Notes under the pieces: model-generated
Told to the model about the DNA's origin: nothing
Databases searched by the model: none
The model's input: only the letters and a program-made list of their open reading frames with translations
Origin: Escherichia phage C6
DNA: 64,000 nucleotides
Reading direction: 5' to 3' (one strand)
Sequence record: MW679410.1
Made by a program: the position numbers and the translations under genes
Shown: one piece after another, positions 8,221-62,880 of the stretch
How the letters are laid out: each line of letters begins with the position of its first letter
Position numbering within the stretch: the first letter of the stretch is position 1

Positions 8221-8250
8221 ATAGTACCATCACTAGAGCCCGTTGTAAAC
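8221..8250 (-). promoter_or_regulatory. early-type promoter GTTTAC -N18- TACTAT
   Basis: Motif on minus strand upstream of 7999..8184 operon. Confidence 0.45.
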
Positions 8251-8252
8251 AA

Positions 8253-8752: not shown

Positions 8753-8789
8753 TTTGATTTCCGTTTGGTTAGTTTGTTTTGATAGGTCT

Positions 8790-8818
8790 ATAGTATCATG
8801 CCTATAGACCTTGTAAAC
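8790..8818 (-). promoter_or_regulatory. early-type promoter GTTTAC -N17- TACTAT
   Basis: Motif on minus strand upstream of internal-protein genes. Confidence 0.45.
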
Positions 8819-8825
8819 AACTTTT

Positions 8826-9503
<678 letters not shown>

Positions 9504-10855: not shown

Positions 10856-10868
10856 AGGATTCCTATAT

Positions 10869-10894
10869 TGCTTAAGTCCCAGACAGTGTATAAT
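10869..10894 (+). promoter_or_regulatory. middle-promoter-like element: MotA box TGCTTAA, 13 nt, extended -10 TGTATAAT
   Basis: Read on plus strand between gp3 start and HNH gene end; points antisense into HNH gene. Confidence 0.35.
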
Positions 10895-10937
10895 GGTCCT
10901 AGGTCTGTTCCATTCAATAACTGGCTGGGATAATAGA

Positions 10938-11588
10938 TTATTTTATAAATTCACGTAGTCTTACTGGTGTCATAAAAGGCCATTTGGCTATAGTTGGTTT
11001 TATCCAGTATCTTTCGTGACATGTAGCTTTAAATGCCCGAACCATATCTTTGGCCTCTTCTATAGTATCCACACCAAATTGTTCACAAGTTTCCTTTCTG
11101 GCTTTATCCCATCTCCTTTTAGAAAGCTCTGATTGGAGTTCTTTATTGGCAAAATGGCCATTATTCCTATTATGAGTGGTTCCTTTTGTAGGACTCCATC
11201 CTCGTCCCTTTACAAATCCTTCAGGAATCGGTTCACCCGGAAACAGCTTAATACACTTCTTGCCATTATTATAATAAACCTTTCCTGTTTGGGTTGCCGT
11301 GATATTCTCAGAGTGCTTACGTTTAAGCCAGCCGTAAAGCTTATTATAACGACGAGGGCCTTGAGTCATTGTCATAGCTGCAAAAGTTAGACCAGGATGT
11401 CCTGGATGCATTTTAACTAATAGTTGATGTGCTAAATAATGTTCTTCAGGAGTTAAATCAACTAAGTTTGTAGATTCATCACCTCCACCCATACATCTAG
11501 GTAAAATATGATGAGATTCGGTATAACAGGATAGTGCTCGTCCTTGAGCACGTGTAATTAATGAAGAATATATTTTCTGGTAATTCAT
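10938..11588 (-). CDS. HNH-family homing endonuclease (free-standing, inserted between genes 3 and 2)
   Basis: Motif SHHILPRCMGGGDESTNLVDLTPEEHYLAH (H-H...N...H); not part of T4 3-2 junction as recalled; start moved to ATG 11588 overlapping gp2 stop. Confidence 0.75.
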   Translation of the reverse strand: MNYQKIYSSLITRAQGRALSCYTESHHILPRCMGGGDESTNLVDLTPEEHYLAHQLLVKMHPGHPGLTFAAMTMTQGPRRYNKLYGWLKRKHSENITATQTGKVYYNNGKKCIKLFPGEPIPEGFVKGRGWSPTKGTTHNRNNGHFANKELQSELSKRRWDKARKETCEQFGVDTIEEAKDMVRAFKATCHERYWIKPTIAKWPFMTPVRLREFIK

Positions 11589-12424
11589 TATGCATTCTTC
11601 CAAACTTTCTGAGCTGAGTAACGCTTGCCTTTCGATACAAATTGCTGAAGTGGTAATCCTATTACATTAGCCCAATCAGCAGGTTTTATCTCTACTAAAG
11701 GTCCTTTAATATTTCCAGGGATATAAGCCTTAATCATCACGTCGGCTCCAGCGAATCCTTTTACCTTACTCCAATCGATTTTTAATTTAGTCGAGTTCGT
11801 AATGGTAGGCGTACTCGCGTATTGCTTCAGCAATTCTTCCAGAAATTGTTGGCGTGCTTTAGGCGGGATATAGTGTAAGTTCAGCCCGTACATTAAATTA
11901 TGCTTACCTAACCCAAGATAAATGATTAAAGGATATTTGTCCCAGTATGGTAGGGTATCCTTATGTTTGGCATCATAGATATAAGCATAAAGCTTACCGG
12001 GAGATGGTTTAGATACCTGGTGTCCACGAATTCCTTTCTTTAATGTTTCTGTAAACCATTTAGCTGATTTATTGTTTACAGCGGCGCCTTCGTTAGCAAT
12101 CTTATCACGAATACTCTTTCTAAAACTATTCACCAAAATTAATTGGCGTTCGGCTTTGGTTAATTTATTGCCAGGTTTATTCTGAAGTTTTTCAACCTGT
12201 ACAGCAGTTTTAATTCGACTCGAATATCGAGACATCGCAGATGTAAAGCTAGAATATTTAATGCCTTTATCTTCAGCGAATTTCTTAGCCGAGACACCTT
12301 TAGCCTTAGCTTTAGCGTATTCAACACCTAAAGCTATCCATTGTTGTTCTGAACGGGTAGGCTTGGAACCCTTTGTGGTTTCAGTAGCCTCATTGATGTA
12401 GGAAAATATACTCATCCTTTCCAT
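11588..12424 (-). CDS. 2: gp2 DNA end protector protein
   Basis: Size and synteny. Confidence 0.85.
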
Positions 12425-33652: not shown

Positions 33653-35635
33653 ATGTCTTTATTATCACCGGGCATTGAGCTCAAAGAAACGTCCGTACAG
33701 AGTACTGTCGTTCGTAACGCAACGGGTCGTGCAGCGCTGGTTGGTAAATTCCAGTGGGGCCCTGCTTTCCAGGTAACTCAAATTACTAACGAAGTTGAAC
33801 TGGTGGATTTGTTTGGAGGTCCTAACAACGAAGTGGCAGATTATTTTATGTCTGGTATGAACTTCCTCCAGTATGGTAACGACCTTCGTACTGTTCGTGT
33901 TGTTAACCGTGAATTCGCTAAAAACGCATCTCCTGTTGCAGGCAATATAGAAACCACTATTACTACGGCTGGTTCTAACTATGCAGTAGGCGATAAAATC
34001 AATATTAAATATAACCAAACTGTAATCGAATCTGAAGGCCGTGTGACTTCTGTAGATACGGATGGTAAAATTCTTTCCGTGTTTATCCCATCAGCAAAAA
34101 TTATTGCTTATGCACGTTCTTTAAACCAGTATCCTACCCTGGGTCCGGCTTGGACGGCTGAAGTTACTTCCGCTTCTTCTGGTGTTTCTGGTACTATTAC
34201 CGTAGGTAAAATTGTTACCGATTCTGGTATTCTTTTGACTGAAGCCGAGAATAGTGAAGAAGCTATTACTTCTCTTGAATTCCAAGCCTCTCTTAAGAAA
34301 TTTGCTATGCCTGGCGTAGTGGCTCTTTATCCAGGCGAAATTGGTTCTACTCTGGAAGTAGAAATCGTTTCCAAAGCAGCTTACGATGCAGGTTCTACTA
34401 AAATGCTGGATATTTATCCGGGTGGTGGTTCTCGTGCTTCTATTGCCAAGGCGGTATTTAATTACGGTCCACAAACAGATGACCAATACGCGATTATTGT
34501 TCGTCGTGATGGCGCTATCGTAGAATCCGTCGTACTTTCTACCAAAGAAGGTGAAAAAGACGTTTACGGTAATAACATTTATCTCGATGACTATTTCGCT
34601 AAAGGCACTTCTAACTATATTTTTGCTACCTCTTTGAACTGGCCTAAAGGCTTCAGTGGTATCATTAATCTGATGGGTGGTGTATCTGCTAACGATCAGG
34701 TTACTGCAGGTGATTTGATGCAGGGTTGGGATTTGTTTGCCGACCGTGAAGCACTCCATATTAACCTTTTGATTGCTGGTGCTGTTGCTGGTGAAGGCGA
34801 TGAAGTTGCTTCTACCGTTCAGAAACACGTGGTGAGCATTGCTGATGAACGTCAAGATTGCTTAGCCTTTATTTCTCCTCCTAAAGGACTGTTGGTTAAC
34901 GTTCCATTGACTCGTGCAGTAGATAACCTTATTGACTGGCGTACAGGTGCAGGTACTTTCGATACCAACAACATGAACATTAGCACCACTTATGCTGCTA
35001 TTGATGGTAACTATAAATATCAGTATGACAAATATAATGACGTAAACCGTTGGGTGCCTCTGGCAGCCGATATGGCCGGTTTGTGTGCGCGTACAGATGA
35101 TGTTTCTCAGCCTTGGATGTCTCCGGCTGGTTATAACCGTGGTCAGATTCTTAACGTTCTGAAATTGGCAATTGAACCGCGCCAAGCTCAACGTGACCGC
35201 ATGTACCAAGAAGCTATTAACCCAGTTGTTGGTTTTGCTGGTGGTGATGGTTTCGTATTGTTTGGTGATAAGACTGCAACTAAAGTTCCATCTCCGATGG
35301 ACCATATTAACGTTCGCCGTCTGTTCAACATGCTTAAGAAAAATATCGGTGATGCCTCTAAATATAAACTGTTTGAATTGAACGACAACTTCACTCGTTC
35401 AAGCTTCCGTATGGAAGTTTCTCAGTACTTAGATGGTATTAAGGCACTTGGTGGGATTTATGAAGGACGTGTGGTTTGCGATACTACAGTGAACACCCCT
35501 GCGGTTATCGACCGTAATGAGTTTATTGCTAATATCTACGTTAAACCGTCGAGATCAATAAATTACATCACGTTGAACTTCGTTGCAACGAGCACTGGTG
35601 CTGATTTTGATGAATTGATTGGACCTTTAGTATAA
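33653..35635 (+). CDS. 18: gp18 tail sheath protein
   Basis: 660 aa; synteny. Confidence 0.95.
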   Translation: MSLLSPGIELKETSVQSTVVRNATGRAALVGKFQWGPAFQVTQITNEVELVDLFGGPNNEVADYFMSGMNFLQYGNDLRTVRVVNREFAKNASPVAGNIETTITTAGSNYAVGDKINIKYNQTVIESEGRVTSVDTDGKILSVFIPSAKIIAYARSLNQYPTLGPAWTAEVTSASSGVSGTITVGKIVTDSGILLTEAENSEEAITSLEFQASLKKFAMPGVVALYPGEIGSTLEVEIVSKAAYDAGSTKMLDIYPGGGSRASIAKAVFNYGPQTDDQYAIIVRRDGAIVESVVLSTKEGEKDVYGNNIYLDDYFAKGTSNYIFATSLNWPKGFSGIINLMGGVSANDQVTAGDLMQGWDLFADREALHINLLIAGAVAGEGDEVASTVQKHVVSIADERQDCLAFISPPKGLLVNVPLTRAVDNLIDWRTGAGTFDTNNMNISTTYAAIDGNYKYQYDKYNDVNRWVPLAADMAGLCARTDDVSQPWMSPAGYNRGQILNVLKLAIEPRQAQRDRMYQEAINPVVGFAGGDGFVLFGDKTATKVPSPMDHINVRRLFNMLKKNIGDASKYKLFELNDNFTRSSFRMEVSQYLDGIKALGGIYEGRVVCDTTVNTPAVIDRNEFIANIYVKPSRSINYITLNFVATSTGADFDELIGPLV

Positions 35636-35760
35636 TCTATTATCCCAGGCTGTAATATAAAGAACCTAAAACTATTATACCATGTGTTTGGTTACAGCGT
35701 ACATCACGTAGAATTGCGCCTGGGATTGATTATTCTTTAGGAATATGATTTATCAACTGT

Positions 35761-42004: not shown

Positions 42005-42033
42005 TTTTAATCTCCTCATGTTTTGATAGGTCT

Positions 42034-42063
42034 ATAGTAACACGACGCTTTTTGTGTGTAAAC
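42034..42063 (-). promoter_or_regulatory. early-type promoter GTTTAC -N18- TACTAT
   Basis: Motif on minus strand. Confidence 0.45.
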
Positions 42064-42069
42064 CACTTT

Positions 42070-42077
42070 TATAAATA
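42070..42077 (+). promoter_or_regulatory. late promoter TATAAATA for gene 24
   Basis: Exact box upstream of ATG 42107. Confidence 0.6.
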
Positions 42078-43419: not shown

Positions 43420-44424
43420 TTACGACACTAATTCAATCCATACTGCTCGTAGGGTATCTTTTACACACTCAACGAGCTGCTTTTTAACTTCAACAGGATT
43501 TTCTGCATCGGTTAATTCTAATTCTTCACGGGCGGCTTCTTCTAAGATATCTTGGACTGTCAAGCCCATTACCTTTCCGAAATCCTTTTTAGATACTTCG
43601 CCAATCTTACTGATGACATTATTAATGCGGTTAACAGTCACATAATCGGTGAATTGCCACATCAAATCCATATCGTCTTGGGATAAAACTACCACAGTCT
43701 TGATAGGCTTATCGGACTTTTTCTTCTCGCTGAATTTAGAGTTCTTACATTTAATCGCTACGCGATTTCCGTTTGGAAGCCAGGTAGGAATATCAGGTTT
43801 AAGTACAAAGCCTTCGGCTGTAAATACTTTACCTTCTACCTTAGGAATAAAGTCTGTCGAGTTTGCAATAGTTAGGCCAGCGTTATCCACTGCAAAATTA
43901 TAATCAGGAATAACTGAATCAAAGTCGTTAGGTAATTTAATAAGGTCTTCAAAGCTACCGGTGGCCAGACATGGAGCTACCTTAAACTTATGGATAATAC
44001 AGAAGGCTTCCATCAATGTATCGGTTAGAACAGATTCTGAACCATCTTCCTTAGTAACTCGGATATCGAACACATAAAAGTCTTTATCGCCGTAGTCCAC
44101 ATTCTTCTGGATACCTGTCCCAGCGAATTCGCCATAAATCTGGTACGACTGATAATTAATCGATTCAATTAGATGTTGAACAGATTTAATAGAATCAGCA
44201 TAGTTCTTAAGTACAATTTCATAACCATAGAAATCTTCAGCAGGGAGGATAGGGCCAGTGCGCTTGGCGCATGTGACTGCGTCACGTTCTATGATTAAAC
44301 TAAAGTTGGTTCCATGAATCTTCTCACGTGCCACCCATTCACCACTGGTCAAACCATTAGTACGGAGTTTTTCGATAAACTTACTGTTGTAGTGGTTTTC
44401 GAGACTGCTATATTTCTTGAACAT
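43420..44424 (-). CDS. rnlB: RNA ligase 2 (Rnl2)
   Basis: Nucleotidyltransferase motif I KIHGTN; very high similarity to recalled T4 Rnl2. Confidence 0.95.
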
Positions 44425-44510
44425 AAATCACCATAATAAATATAATTAAATAGAAGAGCTAGTAGTCTTCTGTCACCAAGCCAAATGGTTTAACGGAAGG
44501 ACCTAGACCC

Positions 44511-44536
44511 ATTATAACACACCTAAATTTAAAGCA
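44511..44536 (-). promoter_or_regulatory. middle-type promoter: MotA box TGCTTTA, 13 nt, TATAAT
   Basis: Read on minus strand upstream of rnlB. Confidence 0.45.
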
Positions 44537-44538
44537 TA

Positions 44539-44748
44539 TTACTTTGAACTAGAACGCGCTTTGCGCCGAACCTTGTTGTTCAATCTTTTACGATAAACAA
44601 CCTTTTCTTTCGCTTTAAATTTGGCCTTGGCTTGTTCTACATCAACCCATGCTTTGGCCATGTCCTTAGCGGTCCCGCCCATTTTTTTAGCAATTTCTAT
44701 AAAATTCAACCCAGATTCGTGTAAAAAATGTACTTTAACCTTATCCAT
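44539..44748 (-). CDS. hypothetical small basic protein (69 aa)
   Basis: ORF track. Confidence 0.5.
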   Translation of the reverse strand: MDKVKVHFLHESGLNFIEIAKKMGGTAKDMAKAWVDVEQAKAKFKAKEKVVYRKRLNNKVRRKARSSSK

Positions 44749-44834
44749 AACAATTCTCTCGTTGAGTTGGTAAAACCCATCTTAACATAGAATTTTTAAC
44801 TTGTAAACAGGAATTTTGTACTTTAACGCAAAAT

Positions 44835-44848
44835 GGGCCTTGCGGCCC
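44835..44848 (-). terminator. hairpin GGGCCGCAAGGCCC + U-rich on minus strand after hoc
   Basis: Read directly. Confidence 0.5.
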
Positions 44849-44852
44849 TTAA

Positions 44853-45701
44853 TTAATAAACGTAATCGTATATAATACCAGCTTCTAAAGCGGTGCGATG
44901 AATAATTCGACCATTACGAGATTCTTGTACATCAACCTCCGGATAGTCGGTAATCATTTTTTGAAGTGTGTATCGGTGCAAATAATACGGGCTATCCGGG
45001 TCATCTGTTTTCCAGTCTTGCCCAGCAATAGTCATTTTCTGAATTTCATCCATAACCCACCAACCACACCAGATATAAGCCGAATTGCGTACTGGCAATG
45101 GATGCACATAAGGTAATTCACCGTCAGGAACAGGTGCTACTTTAGCTGTGACTGTTACATTACCAGTTTTCGTAACAGTCGTCGGGTTATAATCAGTCGC
45201 CGAAACCACAACAGAAACTTCAATAACCTGTGAACCTTCAGCGCCTGTATCGATTGCTAGAGTATCCGTGGTGCCAGCAACAGGAGAACCGTCTTTCTTC
45301 CAAGAATAGGCAAAAGTAGCTCCACTCGGTGCGCCGACGACATCCGCTTTAAAAGAGGCCGGGGTGTCTTCCGGAACATTAATTGATTCTGGGGTTAATG
45401 TCACAGAAACATCAGACATAGTTTTATTCTGGATAGTTAAAGTTGTTTCGGCTTCAGCAGTTTCCGGTTCGCCTTCCGTTGGTGTAGTTGTTGCAACAAC
45501 TTTAATAGTCTTACTGCCTGCTGGACCAGCTGCGACATAATCCATTGCTGCAGTCACAGAAGATTGAGGAACGCCATCAACGGTCCAGACAAATGATTCG
45601 GTACCTTCAGCTGCAGCACCGGAACCGGTCGCAGTGAAATTGGTTGTTGCTCCAATAACGGCCGTAGCCGCCAAAGGAGCAATAGTTACGGTATAAGCCA
45701 T
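44853..45701 (-). CDS. hoc: Hoc-like outer capsid decoration protein (Ig-like domains)
   Basis: Thr/Val/Ala-rich Ig-like repeats; synteny before inh. Confidence 0.8.
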   Translation of the reverse strand: MAYTVTIAPLAATAVIGATTNFTATGSGAAAEGTESFVWTVDGVPQSSVTAAMDYVAAGPAGSKTIKVVATTTPTEGEPETAEAETTLTIQNKTMSDVSVTLTPESINVPEDTPASFKADVVGAPSGATFAYSWKKDGSPVAGTTDTLAIDTGAEGSQVIEVSVVVSATDYNPTTVTKTGNVTVTAKVAPVPDGELPYVHPLPVRNSAYIWCGWWVMDEIQKMTIAGQDWKTDDPDSPYYLHRYTLQKMITDYPEVDVQESRNGRIIHRTALEAGIIYDYVY

Positions 45702-45710
45702 AATAAACCC

Positions 45711-46382
45711 TTATTTTAAAGTGACAAAAGATGAGTTACGAGTTTCTCGTACTAGAACAGACCCATTACGATTGATGTAATAAATCAAGCTGAATAGTGT
45801 TTGGTGTGCGGTAGGATGTTGGAAACTGGTCGGGCGTTCTTTCCAATCCGGAGTTTCAGAAATCCATTGATAAATCCACCAAGGAACGGTGCAATAACCT
45901 GGGTTCTTACCAATAAGCAAAAGATTAGGACTGAAGTTTTCAGGTAAAGAGAATACAGGTTTTTCCAATTCAACAACCTTGGCTACAGCTTCTTTGAATT
46001 TCTCTTCGTCAAACGGAACATCCTCTTCAATAATCTCTACCTTAGGATGTTCGGCTACCTCAACGACTTCAACAACTGCCTCAGGAGCATCGAACAACAG
46101 GGTTGCTTCTTCTTTAGCAGGTTCAGCACCATCAACAAATTCGTTAGCACCTGTAAGTTCGTCGGCAGCATCAATCAAATCAGAAATGGACAACCCTTCG
46201 GTTTCCGGAAGTGGTTCGTCGGCCAAGGCTTTAAGACCTTCAGTGATATCGATAATCAAATTATCAAACGAACGGGTTTTCTTAAGTTTTAAACCGAACT
46301 GTTCACCGTATTCGATTAACTTAGCTTTAGCTTCTTTTTTATCTTCGAGTGCACGAAGCTCTTCAATATATTGAGTATCCAT
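45711..46382 (-). CDS. inh: Inh-like inhibitor of prohead protease
   Basis: Synteny between hoc and uvsW; size. Confidence 0.7.
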   Translation of the reverse strand: MDTQYIEELRALEDKKEAKAKLIEYGEQFGLKLKKTRSFDNLIIDITEGLKALADEPLPETEGLSISDLIDAADELTGANEFVDGAEPAKEEATLLFDAPEAVVEVVEVAEHPKVEIIEEDVPFDEEKFKEAVAKVVELEKPVFSLPENFSPNLLLIGKNPGYCTVPWWIYQWISETPDWKERPTSFQHPTAHQTLFSLIYYINRNGSVLVRETRNSSFVTLK

Positions 46383-46402
46383 AATTAGTCTCTTGTTGGT
46401 GT

Positions 46403-46423
46403 ATAAATATAACTATATTTATA
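46403..46423. promoter_or_regulatory. divergent late promoters: TATAAATA plus 46403-46410 (uvsW), TATAAATA minus 46416-46423 (inh)
   Basis: Two exact boxes read directly. Confidence 0.6.
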
Positions 46424-46437
46424 ACTGAGAATTACTT

Positions 46438-47934
46438 ATGCAAATTCAAGTACATTTTGATAATTTTAGTCATGTCCGTATTGAATGCGATGAATCTACA
46501 TTCTACGAACTCAGAGACTATTTTAGCTTTGAAGCTGATGGATATAAATTCAACCCTAAATTTCGTTATGGACAATGGGATGGTCGTATTCGTCTTCTGG
46601 ATTATAACCGTAAACTGCCTTATGGATTGGTTCCACAGATTAAAAAATTCGCTGAACAATTTGAATACTCTCTGTGGATTGACCCACGTATTCTTGAACA
46701 GGAAGATATTTCTCGTGAAGATTTTGACTCATGGGTTGCTTCTCAAGAAATTTATTCAGGGTCTACCAAGATTGAGCCTCATTGGTATCAGAATGAAGCC
46801 GTATACAACGGCCTGACAAAACGTCGCGCAATTCTGAATTTACCTACATCCGCAGGTAAATCATTAATCCAGGCACTCCTGAGTCGATATTACGTTGAGA
46901 ACTATGAAGGTAAAATCCTTATTCTGGTTCCTACTACTGCACTCGTTGACCAGATGATTAATGACTTCATTGATTATCGTCTGTTCCCTAAAGCAGCAAT
47001 GCTTGGTATTCGTTCAGGTACTGCTCGTGATTCTGATGCAATGATTTACGTTTCGACTTATCAAACCGCTATCAAGCAACCTAAAGAATGGTTCGCTCAG
47101 TTTGGTATGTTTATGAACGACGAATGCCATTTGGCCACAGGTAAATCTATTTCTACTATCATCGAAGGCCTAACCAACTGTATGTTTAAATTCGGTTTGT
47201 CCGGTTCTTTAAAAGATGGTAAAGCTAATTTAATGCAATATATGGGTTTGTTTGGTGATGTGTTTAAGCCGGTATCCACTTCACAGTTGATGGAAGAAGG
47301 ACAGGTTACTGACCTTAAAATCAACAGTATTTTCCTTCGATACCCAGACGAATTCACAGTTAAGATGAAAGGTAAAGATTACCAATCAGAAATTAAAGTC
47401 ATTACTAAGGCTACTCGTCGTAATAAATGGGTTGCTAATTTAGCTGTTAAACTCGCTAAGAAAGAAGAGAACGTATTCCTGATGTTTAAAAACATCGAAC
47501 ACGGTAAAACTCTTTTTGAAATGGTTAAAGAGCAACATAAAGAAGTTTATTATGTATCAGGTGAAGTTAATACCGAAACGCGTAATGCTCTGAAAGTAAT
47601 GGCGGAAAATGGTAAGGGTATTATTGTTGTGGCAAGTTACGGTGTGTTCTCTACCGGTATTTCCGTTAAGAACCTTCACCACGTTGTATTTGCCCATCCA
47701 GTAAAATCTAAAATCATTGTACTCCAGACAATTGGTCGTGTACTCCGTAAACATGCTTCTAAATCAACAGCACAAGTATGGGATATCATCGACGACATGG
47801 GTGTTAAGCCTAAATCAGCTACGGCTAAAAAGAAATATGTTCATTTGAACTACGCCCTCAAACACGCTTTAGAACGTATTCAACGTTATGCTGATGAGAA
47901 ATTTAATTACGTAATGAAACAGGTGGATTTATGA
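46438..47934 (+). CDS. uvsW: UvsW helicase
   Basis: Strong similarity to recalled T4 UvsW incl. helicase motifs (LPTSAGKS, DECH). Confidence 0.97.
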   Translation: MQIQVHFDNFSHVRIECDESTFYELRDYFSFEADGYKFNPKFRYGQWDGRIRLLDYNRKLPYGLVPQIKKFAEQFEYSLWIDPRILEQEDISREDFDSWVASQEIYSGSTKIEPHWYQNEAVYNGLTKRRAILNLPTSAGKSLIQALLSRYYVENYEGKILILVPTTALVDQMINDFIDYRLFPKAAMLGIRSGTARDSDAMIYVSTYQTAIKQPKEWFAQFGMFMNDECHLATGKSISTIIEGLTNCMFKFGLSGSLKDGKANLMQYMGLFGDVFKPVSTSQLMEEGQVTDLKINSIFLRYPDEFTVKMKGKDYQSEIKVITKATRRNKWVANLAVKLAKKEENVFLMFKNIEHGKTLFEMVKEQHKEVYYVSGEVNTETRNALKVMAENGKGIIVVASYGVFSTGISVKNLHHVVFAHPVKSKIIVLQTIGRVLRKHASKSTAQVWDIIDDMGVKPKSATAKKKYVHLNYALKHALERIQRYADEKFNYVMKQVDL

Positions 47935-48158
47935 AAACCTTTAAAGAAGTTATTCAAGAAGCATCTATTGAAAGCTTCATGTCTAAAATTAGTTCTTGTC
48001 AGACCATGGACGGTCTGGAGGAATTGGAGAAGTATTACAAAACTCGTAGTAAGGAAGCCGAACTTCGTGATTCGGATGATATTAGCGTGCGCGATGCATT
48101 GGCTGGTAAGAGAGCTGAATTGGAGTCGATGGACGACGAGGAAGAGGAAGATTTCTAA
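47931..48158 (+). CDS. uvsW.1: UvsW.1 small acidic protein
   Basis: Size and synteny. Confidence 0.85.
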   Translation: MKTFKEVIQEASIESFMSKISSCQTMDGLEELEKYYKTRSKEAELRDSDDISVRDALAGKRAELESMDDEEEEDF

Positions 48159-48165
48159 ACAAAAA

Positions 48166-48188
48166 GGGCCCAACCTTTCGGAAGGGCC
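48166..48188 (-). terminator. GC hairpin followed by U5 on minus strand (near-identical to 6018-6039)
   Basis: Read directly. Confidence 0.5.
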
Positions 48189-48218
48189 AATAACCATAAA
48201 ATGGCTATACACACTAGA

Positions 48219-48386
48219 CTAAATTAATAATTGGGTTTCGTTCAGCTGTTCTTCAGTGTTTTCCGTAACTGGCAAGCTTTGAACGTAATTATAGCATGGA
48301 CCCGGATGAACCGGACCTTTTTCTGTTTCAACAACCAATGCAGCATCGATTGGAGTTTTACAGACAACGCAAATCTTATCTGACAT
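48219..48386 (-). CDS. small Cys-containing protein (55 aa, CVVC...C), uvsY.-2-like
   Basis: Own translation MSDKICVVCKTPIDAALVVETEKGPVHPGPCYNY...; SD AAGGAG; below ORF-track size cutoff. Confidence 0.55.
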   Translation of the reverse strand: MSDKICVVCKTPIDAALVVETEKGPVHPGPCYNYVQSLPVTENTEEQLNETQLLI

Positions 48387-48512
48387 GATTGTCTCCTTAG
48401 TTTAACTTACATATCTATTTATTACTTGCTAAAGCGGCATTAATGAATTCTTGGAGAAGTTTCATCTTATCGGCATCTACTTTAATGGGTTTGGTATTTT
48501 TAGTACGTCTCA

Positions 48513-48947
48513 TTATTTACCTGCCTCAAATTGTCTCATCTCATGCATAGTCTTAAGGTTAAAACCACGCGCCTTAATAGCATCAAGTGCCGAACTACAG
48601 AAGTCCTGTAATAAAGCCCAATACTGGATTGATGTATCGATTTTAATTACACTAGAATCTGCAGCCATTACAGTCTTTAATTCAGACTTCTCATATTGGT
48701 CCATACAAACCTCATCACCAGGCTCTCCGCGTCCCGTGTAGAAATCTAATCGCTTCTTAAGTGAGGTCTTTTTCTGGATTTCTAATCTCATTATTTCTTT
48801 CTTACAATTCGTATACAGTCTTAGCCATTTGCTGTGCAGCAAAACGTTGTTCTGTACTTCATACTGTAACCGAGTTCCATCAATCTTTAAATCTTCATCC
48901 AAAGCATCTTGAAACGACTCTAATTTATATTCAATCTCTTTACTCAT
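48513..48947 (-). CDS. uvsY: UvsY recombination mediator
   Basis: Similarity to recalled T4 UvsY; start moved to ATG 48947. Confidence 0.9.
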   Translation of the reverse strand: MSKEIEYKLESFQDALDEDLKIDGTRLQYEVQNNVLLHSKWLRLYTNCKKEIMRLEIQKKTSLKKRLDFYTGRGEPGDEVCMDQYEKSELKTVMAADSSVIKIDTSIQYWALLQDFCSSALDAIKARGFNLKTMHEMRQFEAGK

Positions 48948-48978
48948 CGCATGTTTCCTGTGTAATAACCATAGGACC

Positions 48979-49006
48979 ATTATACACTATTCATTTGAAT
49001 AGCAAT
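48979..49006 (-). promoter_or_regulatory. middle-type promoter: MotA-like box TGCTATT, 13 nt, extended -10 TGTATAAT
   Basis: Read on minus strand 32 nt upstream of uvsY ATG. Confidence 0.45.
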
Positions 49007-49395
49007 TAACCACTCTGTGAGAGCTGGATTCTAATTTGCTCTAATGTATCAGGGTCATCAACGATACTAAACTGAACGGTCACGATAATCGAGTTATCAT
49101 CGTACACAGGTGTCACACCTACAGCCAGGGCAGAAATTCTAGGTTCGAAGTTCCGCACAGCGGAAACTATATTACGCTTAATAGTATCCGTGATTAATGG
49201 GGTGATATTCTCAAACAATTGGTTACTGATGTCGCAACCAAATTCCGGCATAAAAGGGCGTGAACCTTTGCGAGTAGTAATAATGCCTAACAAACTATTT
49301 TTTACTGCACGAGCGCCTGTAGCTTTAGCGACGTCTCTATTCCAAGACGTCCTCATTTCAGGGTCTAAATCCGAATACATTTTATTGATATTCAT
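49006..49395 (-). CDS. 25: gp25 baseplate wedge protein
   Basis: Strong similarity to recalled T4 gp25. Confidence 0.95.
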   Translation of the reverse strand: MNINKMYSDLDPEMRTSWNRDVAKATGARAVKNSLLGIITTRKGSRPFMPEFGCDISNQLFENITPLITDTIKRNIVSAVRNFEPRISALAVGVTPVYDDNSIIVTVQFSIVDDPDTLEQIRIQLSQSG

Positions 49396-50018
49396 TACAT
49401 CACCTTAAAGAACTCTTTAAGTCCCTCAATAACGTGGACGGTATGTTCACCACATTCACAAGAAATAGGTATGGCCAAAATAGGCTTAGGGGCGACTAGG
49501 GCATCATAAACTTCTTTTATATCTTTTTCTGTTATCACAGAATAAAGGTCATCAAGTTCCGCATCGCTTAAATCGGAAAGAAAAAGCTTTTCGCCTGCAG
49601 AAGTTAAAATATAATCGATACACCCTGCGACCATCATAGCCCTATTTTTATCTTCAAAGAGTTTAGGGTATCTGAAAACAATTTTAAAGTTGCCAAAGTC
49701 TTTAATAACATCAGGCTCTTTACCTAATGTTGCGCGAGTTAGTGTCATAGGGACAACCTGTGAGCGACCACAACTACAAACCCACTCACGTTCTATATTC
49801 ACTTCAGCTAATGAATGGGCCCACAGGTTTATCACCAGGAGCTCAGATTCTTGCTTGTTTAAATCACGAGCATCTGTGCAATTGGAAATGAGTTCATTGA
49901 TAAAGGACTCTATTCTGCCTTCTAATTTAGCTTGGAGCAAGTCCTTATACTCTCTGAGGGTAAATGCTCTGCATTTTATGGTTTTGTTTTTAATTTTTAC
50001 GTCAAAAGTATAATTCAT
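49395..50018 (-). CDS. 26: gp26 baseplate hub protein
   Basis: Size and synteny. Confidence 0.9.
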   Translation of the reverse strand: MNYTFDVKIKNKTIKCRAFTLREYKDLLQAKLEGRIESFINELISNCTDARDLNKQESELLVINLWAHSLAEVNIEREWVCSCGRSQVVPMTLTRATLGKEPDVIKDFGNFKIVFRYPKLFEDKNRAMMVAGCIDYILTSAGEKLFLSDLSDAELDDLYSVITEKDIKEVYDALVAPKPILAIPISCECGEHTVHVIEGLKEFFKVM

Positions 50019-56562: not shown

Positions 56563-56590
56563 AATGTTCTCCTCATGTTTGTGTAAGGTA

Positions 56591-56620
56591 ATAGTACCAC
56601 ATCCTTGTGGTGTTGTAAAC
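56591..56620 (-). promoter_or_regulatory. early-type promoter GTTTAC -N18- TACTAT
   Basis: Motif on minus strand. Confidence 0.45.
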
Positions 56621-58743
56621 TACATTTTGAATTTATTTGGCAGAGCAGAGATATCCAAAGATGCAGCAAGGATTTCCATAGCTTCGTTGCTTTCAGAAAC
56701 GGATTCATTAACCAAGAATTGACTGAATCCATGCATCAGGCGAACTTCACCAGTTTCCATCAAATGGTCGCCATCGTAAACAGATTCGCTGAGCTCTGAA
56801 GGAGGTGTTACTGTAGCTTCCATAAGATATTTGTGAGATACCCTATCATTCATAGCAAAAGCCGCTACTTTATCAACCTTCAACAATAATCCACGCGGAA
56901 GGATAATTTCTGCTTCTTCGGCATATTCTGTAAGGTCACCAGGAGCGATAACTTTAACTGCTTCAGCACCTCGAATAACCATACCAATTTCAGCAATTCT
57001 ATCCGCAGGACCTTCAGGTGCAATTGGATTACCAAACTCGTCTTCTTCCCATTCTACCTCTTCGTCATCGACTTCACCCACATCAGATGAACTACCACTA
57101 GCCAATTTAAACAACTCATCAGCGGAGGATAAAGAACCTTCACCACCAACAAAAACGGCTTGGTTGTCGAGGGCCATATAATTTTTACCAAATTCACCAA
57201 AGATGTTAGGCTTTAATGAGGCTGACACAAAGTTCTTAAAGTAAAATGTTTTGTTATCGATATTATGACGCAGAATTTTGTATGGCAAATCCTGACCACG
57301 ATACAAAATAGTACCCTTAGGAAGTTTAATACCCTTAGTAAATGCTGAGTCTAAATCCTTAATCAATTTAATAGCCGTTGTATTGTTTTCGGATTCAGGT
57401 TTACCTAAAAGGAACAAGTTCATAGGAGCATATTCAGCTGCGCAATATTCAATAATAGCATTGCTTTCGTCTTTGGTTAGGTCCTTAGGTTTAATGAGCT
57501 CACCTGAATAAGCATATGCATCACTAATAGAATCGTTAATTAGTTTATAAACGGCTTCCATAGCGAAAGCAATTCGAGAGGCCTTTTCTGAAGGGGAGCC
57601 TTTAAAACGGGTACTCAGGTTATTAACAATTTTCTTAATAATATCCAGACTATTGGTTGTATTGATTTGCGAAAGACCGCTTAAAAGTCTATCGACTTCT
57701 GTATTAAAAAATGCCATATTATTAGAGTAAATTTCAAACCCTTGTTTATCTCTATTAGCATAATTTAGTTTAAATTTACTATCAGTCATTAAAGCGTGCG
57801 TGAGAGCAATGGTGTATCTAAAGTTGGCAAGGTCCTCGCTCTTAGATTTAAACTGAGAAGCCTGGCGCATTTTGGTAATAGCACCTTTTTTAAAGTTCTG
57901 ACTAATCTGTTCAATACCTTCATTCTCAGGGCCTTCAGCCGTGTGAACCGGTACAGAAGCTTCAAACTCGTTATAAACCTGCAATTCTTTAGGGGACAAA
58001 GTTTCAGGCTCAGCAGTAGAATACTGCGCGGCTGCTGCCATACGACGCGAAATCTTAGTACGAGTAATGACAGCCTTATCAGTACGTTTTTCTTCAACTT
58101 GTGCAATAGATGCCGCTACGGCTTCGACCTTACTTACGGCCTGGCCGGTTTTCTTAGAAACATACACTTCGCCAACTTTAGACTCAACTTTAGTATAAAG
58201 ATCGGCATTAATTTCAGGCATACCCTTGATATCTTCAATATTAGCCCCGCGACGTACTAAAAGAACGTAGGTATGTTTTCCGCTGAATTGGAACATGTCG
58301 TCAACAACTTTAAACTTACCACCGGTACGGGCCATAGCCAAACGAGCTAATACGCGCTGAACGGTAGGGCCTTTACCTTTCATTTTCTTAGTAGGGAAAC
58401 GGAATAAAACCGCGTCCATTTTAAGTTTGTTTATTTGTTCATATATGGTATCGAAAATGGTGTTCAGTGTACCGAGTGGATCGGTACCCAAACCACCCTT
58501 GAGTTCTGCCGGAGCGCCTTTAGCAGATAAACTCATTAAGATAACATGGACGTACTTATCGCCCGCCTTAACCATCTTAATAGCGTCGCCTTCAGACGCA
58601 TAAGATACCATACGTGCTACTAAATTGTCATTACCAGGAGCATGTACCGCAAAAATCTGCGGTACGCCTGAGCCAGGTTTAAGATTTGTTACTGGGTAAT
58701 TTTTTTTATCACTTTTATCAAAAACTTCGTTTAAATTTTCCAT
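56620..58743 (-). CDS. alt: Alt-like ADP-ribosyltransferase, paralog 3 (707 aa)
   Basis: Location between gene 54 and gene 30; R-S-E-type motifs (YRGQ, FVSASL, EAEIILP) in C-terminal third; N-terminal ~235 aa shared with two upstream paralogs. Confidence 0.75.
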   Translation of the reverse strand: MENLNEVFDKSDKKNYPVTNLKPGSGVPQIFAVHAPGNDNLVARMVSYASEGDAIKMVKAGDKYVHVILMSLSAKGAPAELKGGLGTDPLGTLNTIFDTIYEQINKLKMDAVLFRFPTKKMKGKGPTVQRVLARLAMARTGGKFKVVDDMFQFSGKHTYVLLVRRGANIEDIKGMPEINADLYTKVESKVGEVYVSKKTGQAVSKVEAVAASIAQVEEKRTDKAVITRTKISRRMAAAAQYSTAEPETLSPKELQVYNEFEASVPVHTAEGPENEGIEQISQNFKKGAITKMRQASQFKSKSEDLANFRYTIALTHALMTDSKFKLNYANRDKQGFEIYSNNMAFFNTEVDRLLSGLSQINTTNSLDIIKKIVNNLSTRFKGSPSEKASRIAFAMEAVYKLINDSISDAYAYSGELIKPKDLTKDESNAIIEYCAAEYAPMNLFLLGKPESENNTTAIKLIKDLDSAFTKGIKLPKGTILYRGQDLPYKILRHNIDNKTFYFKNFVSASLKPNIFGEFGKNYMALDNQAVFVGGEGSLSSADELFKLASGSSSDVGEVDDEEVEWEEDEFGNPIAPEGPADRIAEIGMVIRGAEAVKVIAPGDLTEYAEEAEIILPRGLLLKVDKVAAFAMNDRVSHKYLMEATVTPPSELSESVYDGDHLMETGEVRLMHGFSQFLVNESVSESNEAMEILAASLDISALPNKFKM

Positions 58744-58746
58744 TAT

Positions 58747-60792
58747 TTACCCTTGGGTGAATTTTTCTGGGATTTCGTCAAAATTAATACATGAAGCCAA
58801 AAGAGGCATTATATCCACCTTGGTCGATTTGACAAATGAATCAAAAGACACAGGGTTGTCGGTCTCTGTTTCTACGCCTTGGTAAACAACCAATTCGCCG
58901 GTTTCCATCAATGCATCACCATCATAGATAACCGCATTTTCTGCTAGTTGGTCTGTGGTCTGGATATCAGCTTCCAATAATTTGGTGTTGTAGTTTCCTT
59001 TATATGAGGCATCTGTAATTTTAGTAATCTTAACAGTAGTTCCACGTGGAAGAATAACCTCTTGTTCTGTTGGAGAACCTGACAATTCACCGGGCACAAT
59101 TACGTTAATAGAGTCTGCACCGGAAATTTTCCAACCGATGTTCATCATTGTATTTTCGGAACTCGTCAGCATACTTGGAAGAACAATTTCATTATCGCCT
59201 TGGAAAGATGTCCCAACGCGATAGTCCTGATGAACTGCGGCCATTGCGACGTTTGATACCCAGCCGCCAAAGATAATCGGCTTAAGGGACGTTGATACAT
59301 AGTTCCTGAAATAAAACAATTTTGAGTGTTTGATTTTATCAAAAGTGTTAACATTTAAATATTGACCACGCCAAAGTGTAATATCAGGTGGCAATTTATG
59401 GCCAATTTCAAATGCCGCATCCATATCATTAATTACTTCAATTACGCGATAACTATCAATAAATTCTGCATCCTCTTCATAATAATTACCCAACAAATAA
59501 TTATTAACATCGGTATAATATTGGCCGCAATAAGAAGAAATAGCCTCACGCTGCTCATACTCAAATCGATTATCGCTATAACTGGCTGTAAAATGCATAA
59601 CACTTTCTGACGCTTCATTAGCAAAATCGGTAACAGCAGCACTTATACGTTGAGCATACTCTTGTTCCCAAAGCTCTGCCGCATATTCGGCCGCATCCAT
59701 ATTAGGAGGAGCCTCATTCATTTTTCTTTCGATAAATGCAGCTTTGCGAAGGTTAAGAACCTCTGCACATGATTCGGCAAAAATCTGCATCTGCTTCATA
59801 CTGCCGACAGGAGCACGTTTAAGTTCACGATGCATACGGTTAAAAATTGGGTCAGAGTCTTCGACTCGAATTTCTTCTTTCCAAACACCGTTTGCTCGCA
59901 TAGCCATATCTGCCGCGCGCATACGCTCCATAGTATTCGTTTCAGAAGGTTGAATAAAAATTTCTAGTTCTTCATAATCGTCGATAAGTTCCGCTGTTGC
60001 TGGGGCACTAAATTTTGATGCCTCTGCATCAATCTCATTCCAACCTTCCGGAACTTCATCTCGAGGAGAATACTGGGCTGCGGCTACAGCACGCCTAGAA
60101 ATCTTGGTAGTAGTAATAACGGCCTTATCCGTACGTTTTTCTTCGACTGCCGCTATACTAGCAGATAGTGCTTCTATTTTGGTTACCGATTGGCCTGTTT
60201 TCTTGGATACATAAACCTCACCAACTTTAGACTCAACCTTAGTGTAAAGGTCTGCATCAATTTCAGGCATACCTTTTATGTCCTCAATATTAGCTTGTTT
60301 ACGAACCAGTAAAACGTATGTATGTTTGCCTGTAAATTGATACATATCATCGACAACTTTAAACTTGCCGCCAGTACGAGCCATCGCCAAACGTGCCAAT
60401 ACACGTTGAACAGTAGGACCCTTACCTTTCATTTTCTTGGTAGGGAACCGGAAAAGAACTGCATCCATACGAAGAGCTTTAACTTGTTCGTATACAGTAT
60501 CGAAAATGGTGTTCAGTGTACCAAGTGGGTCAGAACCTAACCCGCCTTTCAACTCGGCTGGGGTACCCTTAGCAGACAAACTCATCAAAATAACATGAAC
60601 ATATTTGTCGCCCGGCTTAACCATTTTAATAGCGTCTCCTTGAGACGCATAAGATACCATACGAGCAACCAGATTATCATTACCTGGTGCTTGGATAGAG
60701 AAAATCTGTGGAATACCGGAACCCGGTTTAAGATTTGTTACTGGATAGTTTTTAGCGGAATCACTATCAAAAACCTCATTTAAATTTTCCAT
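58747..60792 (-). CDS. alt: Alt-like ADP-ribosyltransferase, paralog 2 (681 aa)
   Basis: As above; motifs WRGQ, YVSTSL, DNEIVLP. Confidence 0.75.
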   Translation of the reverse strand: MENLNEVFDSDSAKNYPVTNLKPGSGIPQIFSIQAPGNDNLVARMVSYASQGDAIKMVKPGDKYVHVILMSLSAKGTPAELKGGLGSDPLGTLNTIFDTVYEQVKALRMDAVLFRFPTKKMKGKGPTVQRVLARLAMARTGGKFKVVDDMYQFTGKHTYVLLVRKQANIEDIKGMPEIDADLYTKVESKVGEVYVSKKTGQSVTKIEALSASIAAVEEKRTDKAVITTTKISRRAVAAAQYSPRDEVPEGWNEIDAEASKFSAPATAELIDDYEELEIFIQPSETNTMERMRAADMAMRANGVWKEEIRVEDSDPIFNRMHRELKRAPVGSMKQMQIFAESCAEVLNLRKAAFIERKMNEAPPNMDAAEYAAELWEQEYAQRISAAVTDFANEASESVMHFTASYSDNRFEYEQREAISSYCGQYYTDVNNYLLGNYYEEDAEFIDSYRVIEVINDMDAAFEIGHKLPPDITLWRGQYLNVNTFDKIKHSKLFYFRNYVSTSLKPIIFGGWVSNVAMAAVHQDYRVGTSFQGDNEIVLPSMLTSSENTMMNIGWKISGADSINVIVPGELSGSPTEQEVILPRGTTVKITKITDASYKGNYNTKLLEADIQTTDQLAENAVIYDGDALMETGELVVYQGVETETDNPVSFDSFVKSTKVDIMPLLASCINFDEIPEKFTQG

Positions 60793-60795
60793 TAT

Positions 60796-62880
60796 TTACC
60801 CTTGGATGAATTTTTCTGGGATGTCATAGAGGTCTATGCATGAAGCCAAAAGAGGCAGTACATCAAACCGTGTAGATTTAACAAATGAATCAAAAGATAC
60901 AGGGCTTTCGGAAGTATCGAAGTCATCTTGATATACGACCAACTCGCCGGTTTCCATTAGTACGTCACCATCATATACCACAGATTCTTGAAGCTCATCT
61001 GTTGTCATAACTTCAGCTTGGATGAGTTTTGTATTACTAGATGTTGTTCCATCATTATTAGAAGCATCTGTTATTTTATTAACTTTGACCATTAATCCAC
61101 GCGGTAGAATAACTTCGGCTTCAGTTGCTATTCCGAGATTTCCTGGATATACTACATTAACTTTATGAGCCCCATCAATAGCCCATCCTATTTGAACTTT
61201 AACGTAATCAGGATTTTCCTTATACGCCCTTATTTCATTAGGGTTAATAGTTATTCCTTCTTCATTTTTATCGACTGTCAATTCATTACGAACTTCCGGT
61301 TCTAAAAGACCGATACCAGCGTGTGTAACACCAAATCGTCCAAAAATGATAGGGGTTAAAGAAGTAGATACAAAATTTCTGAAATAGAACACTTTATTTT
61401 TAACTAGTGCTTCGTATATAGGAGCAGTCATACTCTGTGCACGATAAACTGTAATGCCTTCTGGTATACGGTCACCATTTTCAAAAGCAGAATCCAAATT
61501 ATTAACTGCAGATTCGATATCTTTTTCGCTCATAACCTCATAGTTCTGAGGATTATAACGTCCTAAAAGAAGATTATTTATGTCTGTATATCCTGAACCA
61601 CAATATTCTCTGATGCCGCGCTTTTGTGATGGGGTATATTTAGAGCCCTCACGAGCAATAGTAATATCGACCATAATACCACCACCCACACCAGCAAAAC
61701 TATATACACGTTTTTTAATGAACTTGGTCTTGGCGGCTTTCCACTTCGCATCGGTCAATTCATTCCAGAGGTCGTCAGGTTGGCCTTTACGAGTTTTGTT
61801 ATGCCGGGCCAGCCATTCACCTTTGTATTCTTCGAAAACGGTATTAATAGCAGAGGCATATTTTTCTAGAGCTTTAACAGATGTCAAAGGTTCGTTTTTG
61901 ATGGCCGTAAGAATTTTATCTTTAATTTTCTCTTGGATTTCACCTATACCGTGAAGAGGAAACATTTTATAATCGTAATGCAATTCTTCAGCAGTGCCTT
62001 CAGCCACTATATTAGCAACCTTATTTTTAGCCGCAGGAGAATTGTTATTAGTAACCATTTCCTGAGCCTCAGGGATTAATGGAACTGTTGCTGGTTTATT
62101 AAAATCCGCTGCAGTAGCTTCATATTTCTTAAACAATTCACTTTCATTACGATAAGATTCCAATGATTGGCTTGCTGCAATAGCACGTCGCGAAATCTTA
62201 GTCTTGGTTATAACCATTTTATCAGTGCGACGTTCTTCAACCTTAGCAATACTGCCGGCAATAGCAGTTTCTTTAGTAACCTGCACACCTTCTTTTTTGG
62301 AAATATAAACTTCACCGACATCAGAATCTACCTTAGTGTATAATTCGGAATTAATTCCTGGCATACCTTTGATATCTTCGATATCAGCTTGTTTACGAAC
62401 TACTAAGATGTAAGTATGTTTACCGGTAAATTGGTACATAGCCGGAACTACTTTAAAACGTCCACCAGTTTTCTGTGCTACCAAACGTTGGATAATCCGT
62501 TGGACAATAGGTCCTTGTCCTTTCATTTTCTTGGTAGGAAAACGGAACATCACGGCATCCATACGAAGCTTTTTAACTTGGTCATAAACCACATCAAAAA
62601 TAGTATTAATCGCATCTACGGGAGTAGGGCCAAGGCCACCCTTAAGTTCGGCCGGAGTACCTTTAGCTGAAAGGCTCATAAGGATAACGTGGGCATATTT
62701 ATCACCCATTTTAACTTGTTTAATAGCATCACCTTCAGAAGCGTAGGATACCATACGCGCGACCAATTGGGATTCAACGTCTCCAATTTTCCAAATCTGG
62801 GGTACTTTAAGTTTAGGGTTCAAGTTTACTGTAGGCAGAGTGCCTTCGGACTCAAACACTTCATTTAATTGTTCGGTCAT
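60796..62880 (-). CDS. alt: Alt-like ADP-ribosyltransferase, paralog 1 (694 aa)
   Basis: As above; motifs YRAQ, FVSTSL, EAEVILP. Confidence 0.75.
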   Translation of the reverse strand: MTEQLNEVFESEGTLPTVNLNPKLKVPQIWKIGDVESQLVARMVSYASEGDAIKQVKMGDKYAHVILMSLSAKGTPAELKGGLGPTPVDAINTIFDVVYDQVKKLRMDAVMFRFPTKKMKGQGPIVQRIIQRLVAQKTGGRFKVVPAMYQFTGKHTYILVVRKQADIEDIKGMPGINSELYTKVDSDVGEVYISKKEGVQVTKETAIAGSIAKVEERRTDKMVITKTKISRRAIAASQSLESYRNESELFKKYEATAADFNKPATVPLIPEAQEMVTNNNSPAAKNKVANIVAEGTAEELHYDYKMFPLHGIGEIQEKIKDKILTAIKNEPLTSVKALEKYASAINTVFEEYKGEWLARHNKTRKGQPDDLWNELTDAKWKAAKTKFIKKRVYSFAGVGGGIMVDITIAREGSKYTPSQKRGIREYCGSGYTDINNLLLGRYNPQNYEVMSEKDIESAVNNLDSAFENGDRIPEGITVYRAQSMTAPIYEALVKNKVFYFRNFVSTSLTPIIFGRFGVTHAGIGLLEPEVRNELTVDKNEEGITINPNEIRAYKENPDYVKVQIGWAIDGAHKVNVVYPGNLGIATEAEVILPRGLMVKVNKITDASNNDGTTSSNTKLIQAEVMTTDELQESVVYDGDVLMETGELVVYQDDFDTSESPVSFDSFVKSTRFDVLPLLASCIDLYDIPEKFIQG

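Follow-up and report, generated by a model that had tools for sequence, protein, structure and literature searches.

A conserved block around the start site of uvsY-type middle promoters in Escherichia phage C6 and related T4-type phages, and its possible role in R-loop priming

Genomic context and layout of the sites

A 64,000-nucleotide (nt) stretch of the Escherichia phage C6 genome (sequence record MW679410.1; hereafter the window, with plus and minus denoting its two strands) carries three middle-promoter-like sites, designated A, B and C, that share an unusual block of sequence beyond the -10 hexamer, and it is this block, which may mark a promoter subclass of its own, that is analyzed here. 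Its sequence places the phage among the T4-type phages of the genus Dhakavirus, close to JS98: over 44000-49500, identity reaches 97.8% with Escherichia phage AnYang and 94.8% with JS98. By the JS98 annotation the gene order in this region is rnlB, a 24.3-like open reading frame (ORF), hoc, inh, uvsW, uvsY.-2, uvsY, 25 and 26. The genes motA and asiA lie outside the window and are annotated in JS98, the closest annotated relative. Site A is situated in the gap between the stop codon of gene 25 (49008-49006) and the ATG of uvsY (48947), site B in the gap between the DUF2774/24.3-like ORF (stop codon 44541-44539) and the ATG of rnlB (44424), and site C in the gap between gene 3 (10265-10855, minus) and an ORF at 10938-11603 (minus), on the strand opposite to both.

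All three sites display a common layout, namely a TGCT(T/A)nn MotA box, 13 nt, (TG)TATAAT and then a GGTCCTAGG-like sequence. The consensus for T4 middle promoters is a wwwTGCTTtA MotA box centred near -30 and separated by 12±1 bp from a sigma-70 -10 element, often with an upstream TG (PMC2988021). Set against it, the boxes read aatTGCTATT at site A (one departure), ataTGCTTTA at site B and tatTGCTTAA at site C, and each of the three is followed by a 13-bp spacer and a perfect TATAAT. A preliminary description of this DNA had called the sites middle-promoter-like and had placed a MotA-like box 13 nt from TATAAT at each; both points hold, given the fit to the T4 consensus, the presence of MotA and AsiA in JS98 and the correspondence of site A to the T4 uvsY promoter. 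The intervals which it gave run exactly from box to -10, the extra motif sitting just 3' of them. The sites are very probably real middle promoters of a conserved subclass.

At site A (minus strand) the MotA box TGCTATT (49004-48998) stands directly 3' of the gene 25 stop codon, the TG and -10 TATAAT occupy 48986-48979 (hexamer 48984-48979), and the bases that follow are GGTCCTATGG (48978-48969). The whole downstream block (48978-48966) is composed of GGTCC (-6 to -2), T, the inferred start A at 48972, T and GGTTA, where the start is taken from T4 PuvsY, which is mapped at the homologous A. A start at 48972 would give a uvsY mRNA that begins with AUG and opens a leaderless ORF of 10 codons ending over the uvsY start codon (48942-48972, minus), a feature not kept in all Dhakaviruses (locus L010 has ACGG).

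Site B (minus strand) has its MotA box TGCTTTA at 44536-44530, directly 3' of the DUF2774/24.3-like stop codon, and 13 nt further its TGn and -10 (TGTTATAAT, 44519-44511; TATAAT 44516-44511), followed by the downstream block GGGTCTAGGTCC (44510-44499) that consists of GGGTC, T, the inferred start A at 44504 and then GGTCC. Likeness to other members runs on here to about 44480 (CTTCCGTTAAACC). At site C (plus strand) the MotA box TGCTTAA lies at 10869-10875, its complement directly upstream of the Shine-Dalgarno sequence and ATG of gene 3 (10855, minus), the GTG and -10 TATAAT follow after 13 nt at 10886-10894 (hexamer 10889-10894), and the next bases are GGTCCTAGGTC (10895-10905). Its downstream block (10895-10924) comprises GGTCC, T, the inferred start A at 10901, GGTCT and GTTCCATTCAATAAC, and the promoter is directed antisense into the ORF at 10938-11603, the place of gene 2 in relatives.

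A fourth copy, site E (35662..35699, minus), has a box-like CGCTGTA, 13 nt, TATAAT (35679-35674) and AGTTT-TA-GGTTC. It lies between genes 18 and 19 and is antisense to gene 18, and the first unit of its block is GGTTT in other Dhakaviruses. Besides this copy, the analysis adds to the preliminary description that site C points against the flanking late genes, that similarity among members extends to about +30, and that the promoters of the T4 origins oriF and oriG belong to the same family.

The motif exceeds chance expectation

Measured against the 15-mer TATAATGGTCCTAGG, sites A, B and C carry 1, 2 and 0 mismatches, respectively, and at up to 3 mismatches the window holds 11 occurrences versus 1.9 expected. 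A genome-wide motif scan, the check that had been put forward at the outset, gave a frequency above chance when run on JS98, with 7 occurrences versus 0.33 expected at up to 2 mismatches and 3 versus 0 at up to 1 mismatch, making the motif about 20-fold over-represented in that genome. We then searched both strands of the window with an nhmmer profile built solely from non-Dhakavirus uvsY promoters and spanning -3 to +32 around the -10. The top three matches were site B (22.6 bits, E=7e-6), site C (14.9 bits, E=0.002) and site A (12.5 bits, E=0.012). The fourth, at 35681-35656 (minus), was site E with 8.1 bits (15.3 in JS98), the noise in the window reaching no more than 6.9 bits. The cross-phage profile ranking and the JS98 counts together rule out chance similarity.

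Nor is the block a product of the general middle-promoter consensus, which is ruled out as its source because the other mapped T4 middle promoters (58 in all) and the MotA-type sites of the window at 2981 and 8074 (both minus) lack it. What follows the -10 in the 58 T4 promoters is variable, mostly AT-rich sequence, and GG comes directly after it in only PnrdC.7, P24.3, P34i and P52.

The uvsY-promoter family across phages

To follow the block beyond Dhakaviruses we gathered 37 IMG/VR loci by way of UvsY (28-100% identical to the UvsY of the window), from phages that include Citrobacter phage Merlin, Escherichia phage EcS1 and Enterobacter phages. With the exception of the three most divergent loci (L020, L086 and L089), all show a (T/C)GCTT box, 12-14 nt, TG, TATAAT and GG(T/G)yyTA.G.yCC.TT. 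In a gap-free alignment of 13 uvsY-promoter lineages the -10 hexamer is invariant (2.0 bits per position), and the first and second bases after it, both G, carry 2.0 and 1.6 bits. The 7 bases after the -10 average 1.2 bits per position versus 0.29 bits per position in the spacer between box and -10. These figures, together with the variable sequence at the same place in the mapped T4 promoters, bear out the earlier remark that the conservation is more than a promoter needs. Similarity among members runs to about +30, as exemplified by TTCCATTCAATAAC, which is found in site C, in the T4 promoter antisense to gene 2 and in Merlin PuvsY.

T4 was scanned with a profile from which T4-like sequences had been excluded, and the matches that possess a MotA box were PnrdC.7, a site between genes 3 and 2, P34i, PuvsY and a site between srd and modA; two unrelated matches without a MotA box, at 132587 (minus) and 7192 (minus), rank among them. 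JS98 yielded site B, a site upstream of nrdC.6, site E (gene 18/19), site C, site A, the srd/modA site on the plus strand and a site inside gene 34, in other words the same five positions as T4 plus B and E. Site A is the positional ortholog of T4 PuvsY, the oriF promoter, in the gap between gene 25 and uvsY. A mapped PrnlB exists in T4 as well, but it is located inside gene 24.2 and has no sequence homology to site B.

Two of the five T4 members appear to have gone undescribed. The promoter in the gene 3/2 spacer (at about 75,988, within about 75,960-76,010, plus) reads TAATGCTTTA, 13 nt, TATAAT GGGTCTAAGTCCCTTCCATTCAAT and is antisense into gene 2, and that in the srd/modA spacer (at about 11,885, within about 11,860-11,910, plus) reads TATAAT GAATCTAAGTCCTTCCATT and is antisense into modA. 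Both are absent from the 58-promoter table of mapped middle promoters and unannotated in NC_000866, and we found no 5'-end or antisense-transcript data for either site in the literature.

A two-unit block around the transcription start

The mapped T4 starts of PnrdC.7 (53325), PuvsY (115371) and P34i (153011) all coincide exactly with the A of yTA that lies 7 nt past the -10. Because these starts fix the position of +1, the block can be seen to begin with the discriminator (-6 to -1, with GG at -6/-5), to take in the start, which is the A of yTA, and to run into the initial bases of the transcript. Its layout is that of two direct GGKYY units with the start A in the short gap between them: GGTCC-TA-GGTCT at site C, GGGTC-T-AGGTC at site B, GGTTC-TA-GGTTC upstream of JS98 nrdC.6, GGGTT-AC-GGGTT in EcS1 and GGCTT-TGA-GGCTT in locus L055. 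Within JS98 the units vary from site to site (GGTCC, GGGTC, GGTTC) and tend to match within a site. Across the family a unit matches its own partner at 3.73 of 5 positions versus 3.39 of 5 for the partners of other promoters (permutation p=0.005, uncorrected for phylogeny). Since the units differ between sites and yet tend to match within them, a cis effect of the repeat is favoured over recognition by one trans-acting protein.

P34i offers a separate view of the block, for it runs antisense within the gp34 peptide ESGTLW(D/N)HYTL..EA(N/S)ETQ. In 19 distinct sequences its box, 13-nt spacer and TATAAT are kept by way of invariant synonymous codons (Ala GCA, Glu GAA, His CAT and Tyr TAT), the single exception being one Glu-to-Lys change. 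Here the Asp/Asn codon determines unit 1, and unit 2 depends on a synonymous choice of Gly codon; the two are concordant in 9 lineages and discordant in 2 (Fisher p=0.045, or about 0.08 with two related lineages merged). Taken together, the conservation and the repeat suggest that the block is probably under selection and cis-acting.

Orphan members, predicted RNA folds and the setting of sites C and E

About half of the family members are orphan promoters that point antisense into neighbouring genes. Site C, site E, P34i and the srd/modA site each face the 3' end or the interior of an opposite-strand gene, and no conserved ORF follows any of these four; in particular, a conserved small ORF downstream of site C was sought, and none is common to T4, JS98 and the window. 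In T4 the orphans make up three of the five family members, P34i being the sole orphan among the mapped middle promoters. The promoter antisense to gene 2 is kept in Dhakavirus, the T4-likes and the L051 and L055 loci, and the only phages without it are those in which genes 2 and 3 adjoin; the srd/modA site is kept in four lineages. Because so many members are antisense orphans, the block is not a folded RNA or a coding leader. The preliminary description had also entertained an RNA-structure site, which was not borne out: the folding of the transcripts predicted from sites A, B, C and E is no more stable than that of shuffled controls (z from -0.62 to +0.81), and an Rfam scan of the window returned only three tRNAs, none of them there. 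A structured leader or known RNA is ruled out by these two results.

The RNAs of the opposite, late-gene sense strands are a different matter. Those spanning sites C (10850-10945, minus) and E (35625-35740, plus) are predicted to form unusually stable hairpins (z=-2.5 and -2.7) that begin immediately 3' of the stop codon (TAATCTATTATCCCAG...) and have the complement of the antisense promoters inside them, with a stem that varies by lineage (CCCAGTTT/AAACTGGG in locus L051). Associated with them is a second block, CTGGGATAATAGATTAT, common to sites C and E only; it lies at 10925..10941 (plus), where it is adjacent to the stop codon that ends the upstream ORF of the late strand, and at 35635..35651 (minus), where it overlaps the stop codon of gene 18. 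The second block is part of an inverted repeat that encloses the promoter at C and E. An inverted repeat around the -10, as in early promoters, was considered as the source of the shared motif and set aside, because it is present at C and E and absent at A and B.

Sites A, B, C and E are all found in intergenic regions of core genes at syntenic positions, and only C adjoins an indel. The ORF next to it (10938-11603, minus; 216-221 aa) is inserted between genes 2 and 3 and carries in relatives the annotation of a homing or intron-like endonuclease; it gave no Pfam match at E<=0.01. It is not present in JS98, IME08 or AnYang, the junctions being near 10942 and 11580 with an overlap of 11 bp. As site C is present in IME08, AnYang and JS98, which lack this ORF, it is native to the gene 2/gene 3 spacer, and its arrival together with a homing endonuclease is ruled out by IME08, JS98 and T4, all of which have the site without that gene.

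Possible function of the block

In Escherichia coli promoters, G residues at -6/-5 contact sigma region 1.2, and a G at +2 lies in the core recognition element read by the beta subunit. The uvsY-type module carries every downstream sigma-70 contact at its optimum (TG, perfect -10, GG and G at +2). At such a promoter MotA would bind the TGCTT box at about -30 and sigma-70 would read the TG and the perfect TATAAT, while the GG after the -10 is placed for the discriminator contact with region 1.2 and the G at +2 would sit in the core recognition element. Transcription would start at the A of yTA, as shown for T4 PuvsY, PnrdC.7 and P34i, after which the repeat in the initial transcribed sequence may act in cis on the nascent transcript, and the transcripts may persist as RNA-DNA hybrids that prime replication, as has been demonstrated for T4 PuvsY (oriF) and P34i (oriG). 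PuvsY is the R-loop primer promoter of oriF and P34i that of oriG (T4 annotation and reviews, including PMC3016281), and thus both T4 promoters known to prime replication through R-loops belong to this family. A T4-type R-loop origin requires a middle-mode promoter, which is what the sites here possess, and site A is moreover syntenic with oriF. Such origins further have an A+T-rich DNA unwinding element downstream, and experimentally they are recognised by a persistent R-loop and by plasmids that replicate autonomously in infected cells (PMC3016281). The reading that we favour, with a probability of about one half, is that the uvsY-type module represents a distinct and ancient subclass of MotA/AsiA-dependent middle promoters whose block would act in cis, either at initiation or through the nascent transcript, with R-loop priming as the job most likely for it. 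For sites B and C individually, by analogy with oriF and oriG, a role in R-loop formation or priming is possible and should be taken as tentative.

Several observations weigh against this reading. R-loop formation at oriF is independent of specific sequence, its unwinding element can be replaced by heterologous ones, and a classic plasmid screen for T4 origins yielded only two (PMC3016281). The proven T4 origins PuvsY and P34i are the weakest matches to the profile (7.0 and 7.9 bits), and the interval +1 to +60 is modestly AT-rich at best (60-68% versus 60% for the window; 62-78% for the T4 members). Within the window, 89 TATAAT sites give 6 pairs of following 9-mers with at least 7/9 identity versus 7.6 expected, so that the in-window 9-mer similarity taken alone is weak evidence. 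The statistics on co-variation of the units are uncorrected for phylogeny and marginal once lineages are merged, and promoter strength alone could explain the GG discriminator and the yTA start.

This last point leads to a possible, though less favoured, explanation in which the block is an element of promoter kinetics: TGn, a perfect -10, GG, T at -1 with A at +1, and G at +2 would bring the contacts of RNA polymerase to a maximum and produce strong or partly MotA-independent promoters, the remaining similarity would reflect common descent, and R-loops would play no role. The positions that are most conserved are indeed the two G's after the -10, with conservation decaying downstream; every member has a perfect TATAAT and an upstream TG, and several imperfect MotA boxes (CGCTTT, TGCTAT, CGCTGTA) would fit compensation. 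Early promoters of the same phages also read TATAATGGTCCC, and lambda PR has GATAATGGTTGC. What promoter kinetics leaves unexplained is that unit 2 (+2 to +6) repeats unit 1 and tends to co-vary with it, that homology extends to about +30, and that half of the members have been conserved as orphans although they have nothing to express. These orphans are the starting point of another proposal, quite unlikely in our estimation, that the copies at C, E, anti-modA and 34i are sources of regulatory antisense RNAs directed at the 3' ends of adjoining genes and that the first transcribed bases form a 5' RNA motif. Their antisense orientation is kept across genera, and the promoters lie within 20-60 nt of the stop codon of the gene they face, but the predicted transcripts have neither structure nor terminator (z about 0) and no Rfam family, the same block heads ordinary mRNAs of uvsY, rnlB and nrdC.6/7, and the targets are unrelated and differ in timing class (modA early; 2, 18 and 34 late). 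A trans-acting RNA has furthermore not been characterised in T4 (PMC3014915).

We regard as very unlikely the idea that the members are mobile promoter cassettes of the PeSL/PmSL type, their similarity arising from copying by recombination and the block having no function of its own. Promoter cassettes, a MotA-type 'PmSL' among them, are known from T4-like phages (PMC4122927), Dhakavirus has in B and E two additional copies that T4 does not have, C adjoins the homing-endonuclease indel, and leaders can be alike between different genes in different phages (e.g. T4 PnrdC.7 and the PuvsY of locus L070). Yet T4 and JS98 have members at five syntenic positions, the block has been retained next to spacers that have wholly diverged, P34i is held through synonymous sites within a core gene, and the sites lie outside hyperplastic regions; there is also no terminator stem-loop directly upstream of A or B, and the inverted repeat of C and E surrounds the promoter and does not precede it. 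Equally improbable is a site for a separate sequence-specific protein, be it a repressor or an origin initiator bound to two direct half-sites. Two such half-sites do flank the start, and RepEB mutations reduce replication from all T4 origins (PMC3016281), but the half-site spacing varies (6, 7, 8 and 10 nt), and units that vary from site to site of a genome but tend to be alike at any one site are not what the specificity of one protein would predict. Three narrower candidates were also discarded: a sigma-dependent pause element in unit 2, as the TAnnnT match is inconsistent between members, and a primase GTT site, as it is absent from T4 PuvsY (both by reading of the family sequences), as well as the NAD-capping consensus, which the sequences do not fit.

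Although rather unlikely, it is tempting to extend the R-loop reading so that the module would be the missing shared signature of T4-type transcript-primed origins, with A and C, and perhaps B and E, acting as origins and the repeat making the RNA persist. According to the T4 replication review, the origins have no local motif in common, and oriF and oriG have little homology (PMC3016281). The five syntenic T4 copies are located at 11.9 (+), 53.3 (-), 76.0 (+), 115.4 (-) and 153.0 (-) kb, and early-active T4 origins are reported near soc (about 15 kb; 16.8 in GenBank), rI.-1 (about 59), repEA (about 79), 115.3 and 152.9 kb (PMC3016281), where the peak positions are those of the review and GenBank notes only. 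Two of the copies coincide with an early origin and three stand at a distance of 3-6 kb, which is a lead and not a result.

As middle promoters the sites are ordinary, given that two of the three match genes with known T4 middle promoters. The part that appears to be undescribed is the subclass, whose mark is a conserved block of discriminator, start and initial transcript; it spans Tevenvirinae genera and includes both proven R-loop origin promoters and at least two conserved T4 orphans outside the mapped list. Within the papers accessible to us we found no description of this subclass, of its repeat architecture or of the conserved orphan copies, including the two in T4.

Other repeated elements in the window

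Early (GTTTAC-type) promoters of these phages have inverted repeats of their own, variable and compensating, that flank the -10 (e.g. GAGGACagggTATAATGTCCTC and GGGACCagagTATAATGGTCCC), which would place the -10 in the loop of a potential hairpin or cruciform. Examples are found at 4450-4490 (minus) in the window, at 39442, 136586, 167118, 134145 and 130458 (all minus) in JS98 and at 7192 (minus) in T4, and several continue with AyGGATTATAAA. Two families of intergenic repeat cassettes of 60-69 nt (1049-1117, 42007-42075 and 56564-56632; 5253-5312, 8205-8264 and 8774-8833) are likewise early-promoter-like on the minus strand, possessing GTTTAC and internal palindromes such as AGGTCTATAG...CTATAGACCT. 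A 40-nt repeat, 90% identical between 6007-6046 and 48156-48195, contains a GC-rich hairpin (GGCCCAACCTTTCGGAAGGGCC) and is probably a shared terminator. Finally, the alt (ADP-ribosyltransferase) region at 58015-62765 is made up of three tandem diverged copies of about 2 kb that are 65-84% identical and spaced by 2049 and 2094 nt; JS98 annotates two alt paralogs.

Comparison with known systems

The uvsY-type sites resemble T4 MotA/AsiA middle promoters in their MotA box, their spacing (13 here) and their sigma-70 -10 with TG. T4 middle promoters, however, share nothing after the -10, whereas in the uvsY-type there follow a conserved GG discriminator, a start at a fixed place and initial transcribed bases that are conserved too. 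With G's at -6/-5 and +2 in the known contact positions, the sites resemble the sigma-70 discriminator and core recognition element as in lambda PR, which does not account for the second GGKYY unit or for the conservation up to about +30. The PeSL and PmSL elements (Arbiol 2010; Comeau 2014) are also short repeated promoter elements, and PmSLs use a Mot box and a -10, but PeSLs have a terminator stem-loop just upstream and stand beside ORFans in hyperplastic regions, while uvsY-type modules are found at syntenic core positions in different genera.

The closest precedent for such a direct repeat at the promoter of a primer is RNA II of plasmid ColE1, in which, according to work ascribed to Masukata and Tomizawa (1990), a repeated G-rich/C-rich element reportedly anchors the transcript to its template and so yields the replication primer. 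The parallel is one of analogy only, for the two ColE1 repeats are far from each other and both lie within the transcript, whereas here unit 1 is upstream of the start. The promoters of oriF and oriG, by contrast, are themselves members of the family. The AT-rich unwinding element of those origins is not clearly recognisable in the window, and the likeness of site A to oriF is one of sequence and synteny. As in T4, a promoter of this type occupies the position of the oriF promoter at site A, and P34i, C and E are all orphans antisense to a late gene.

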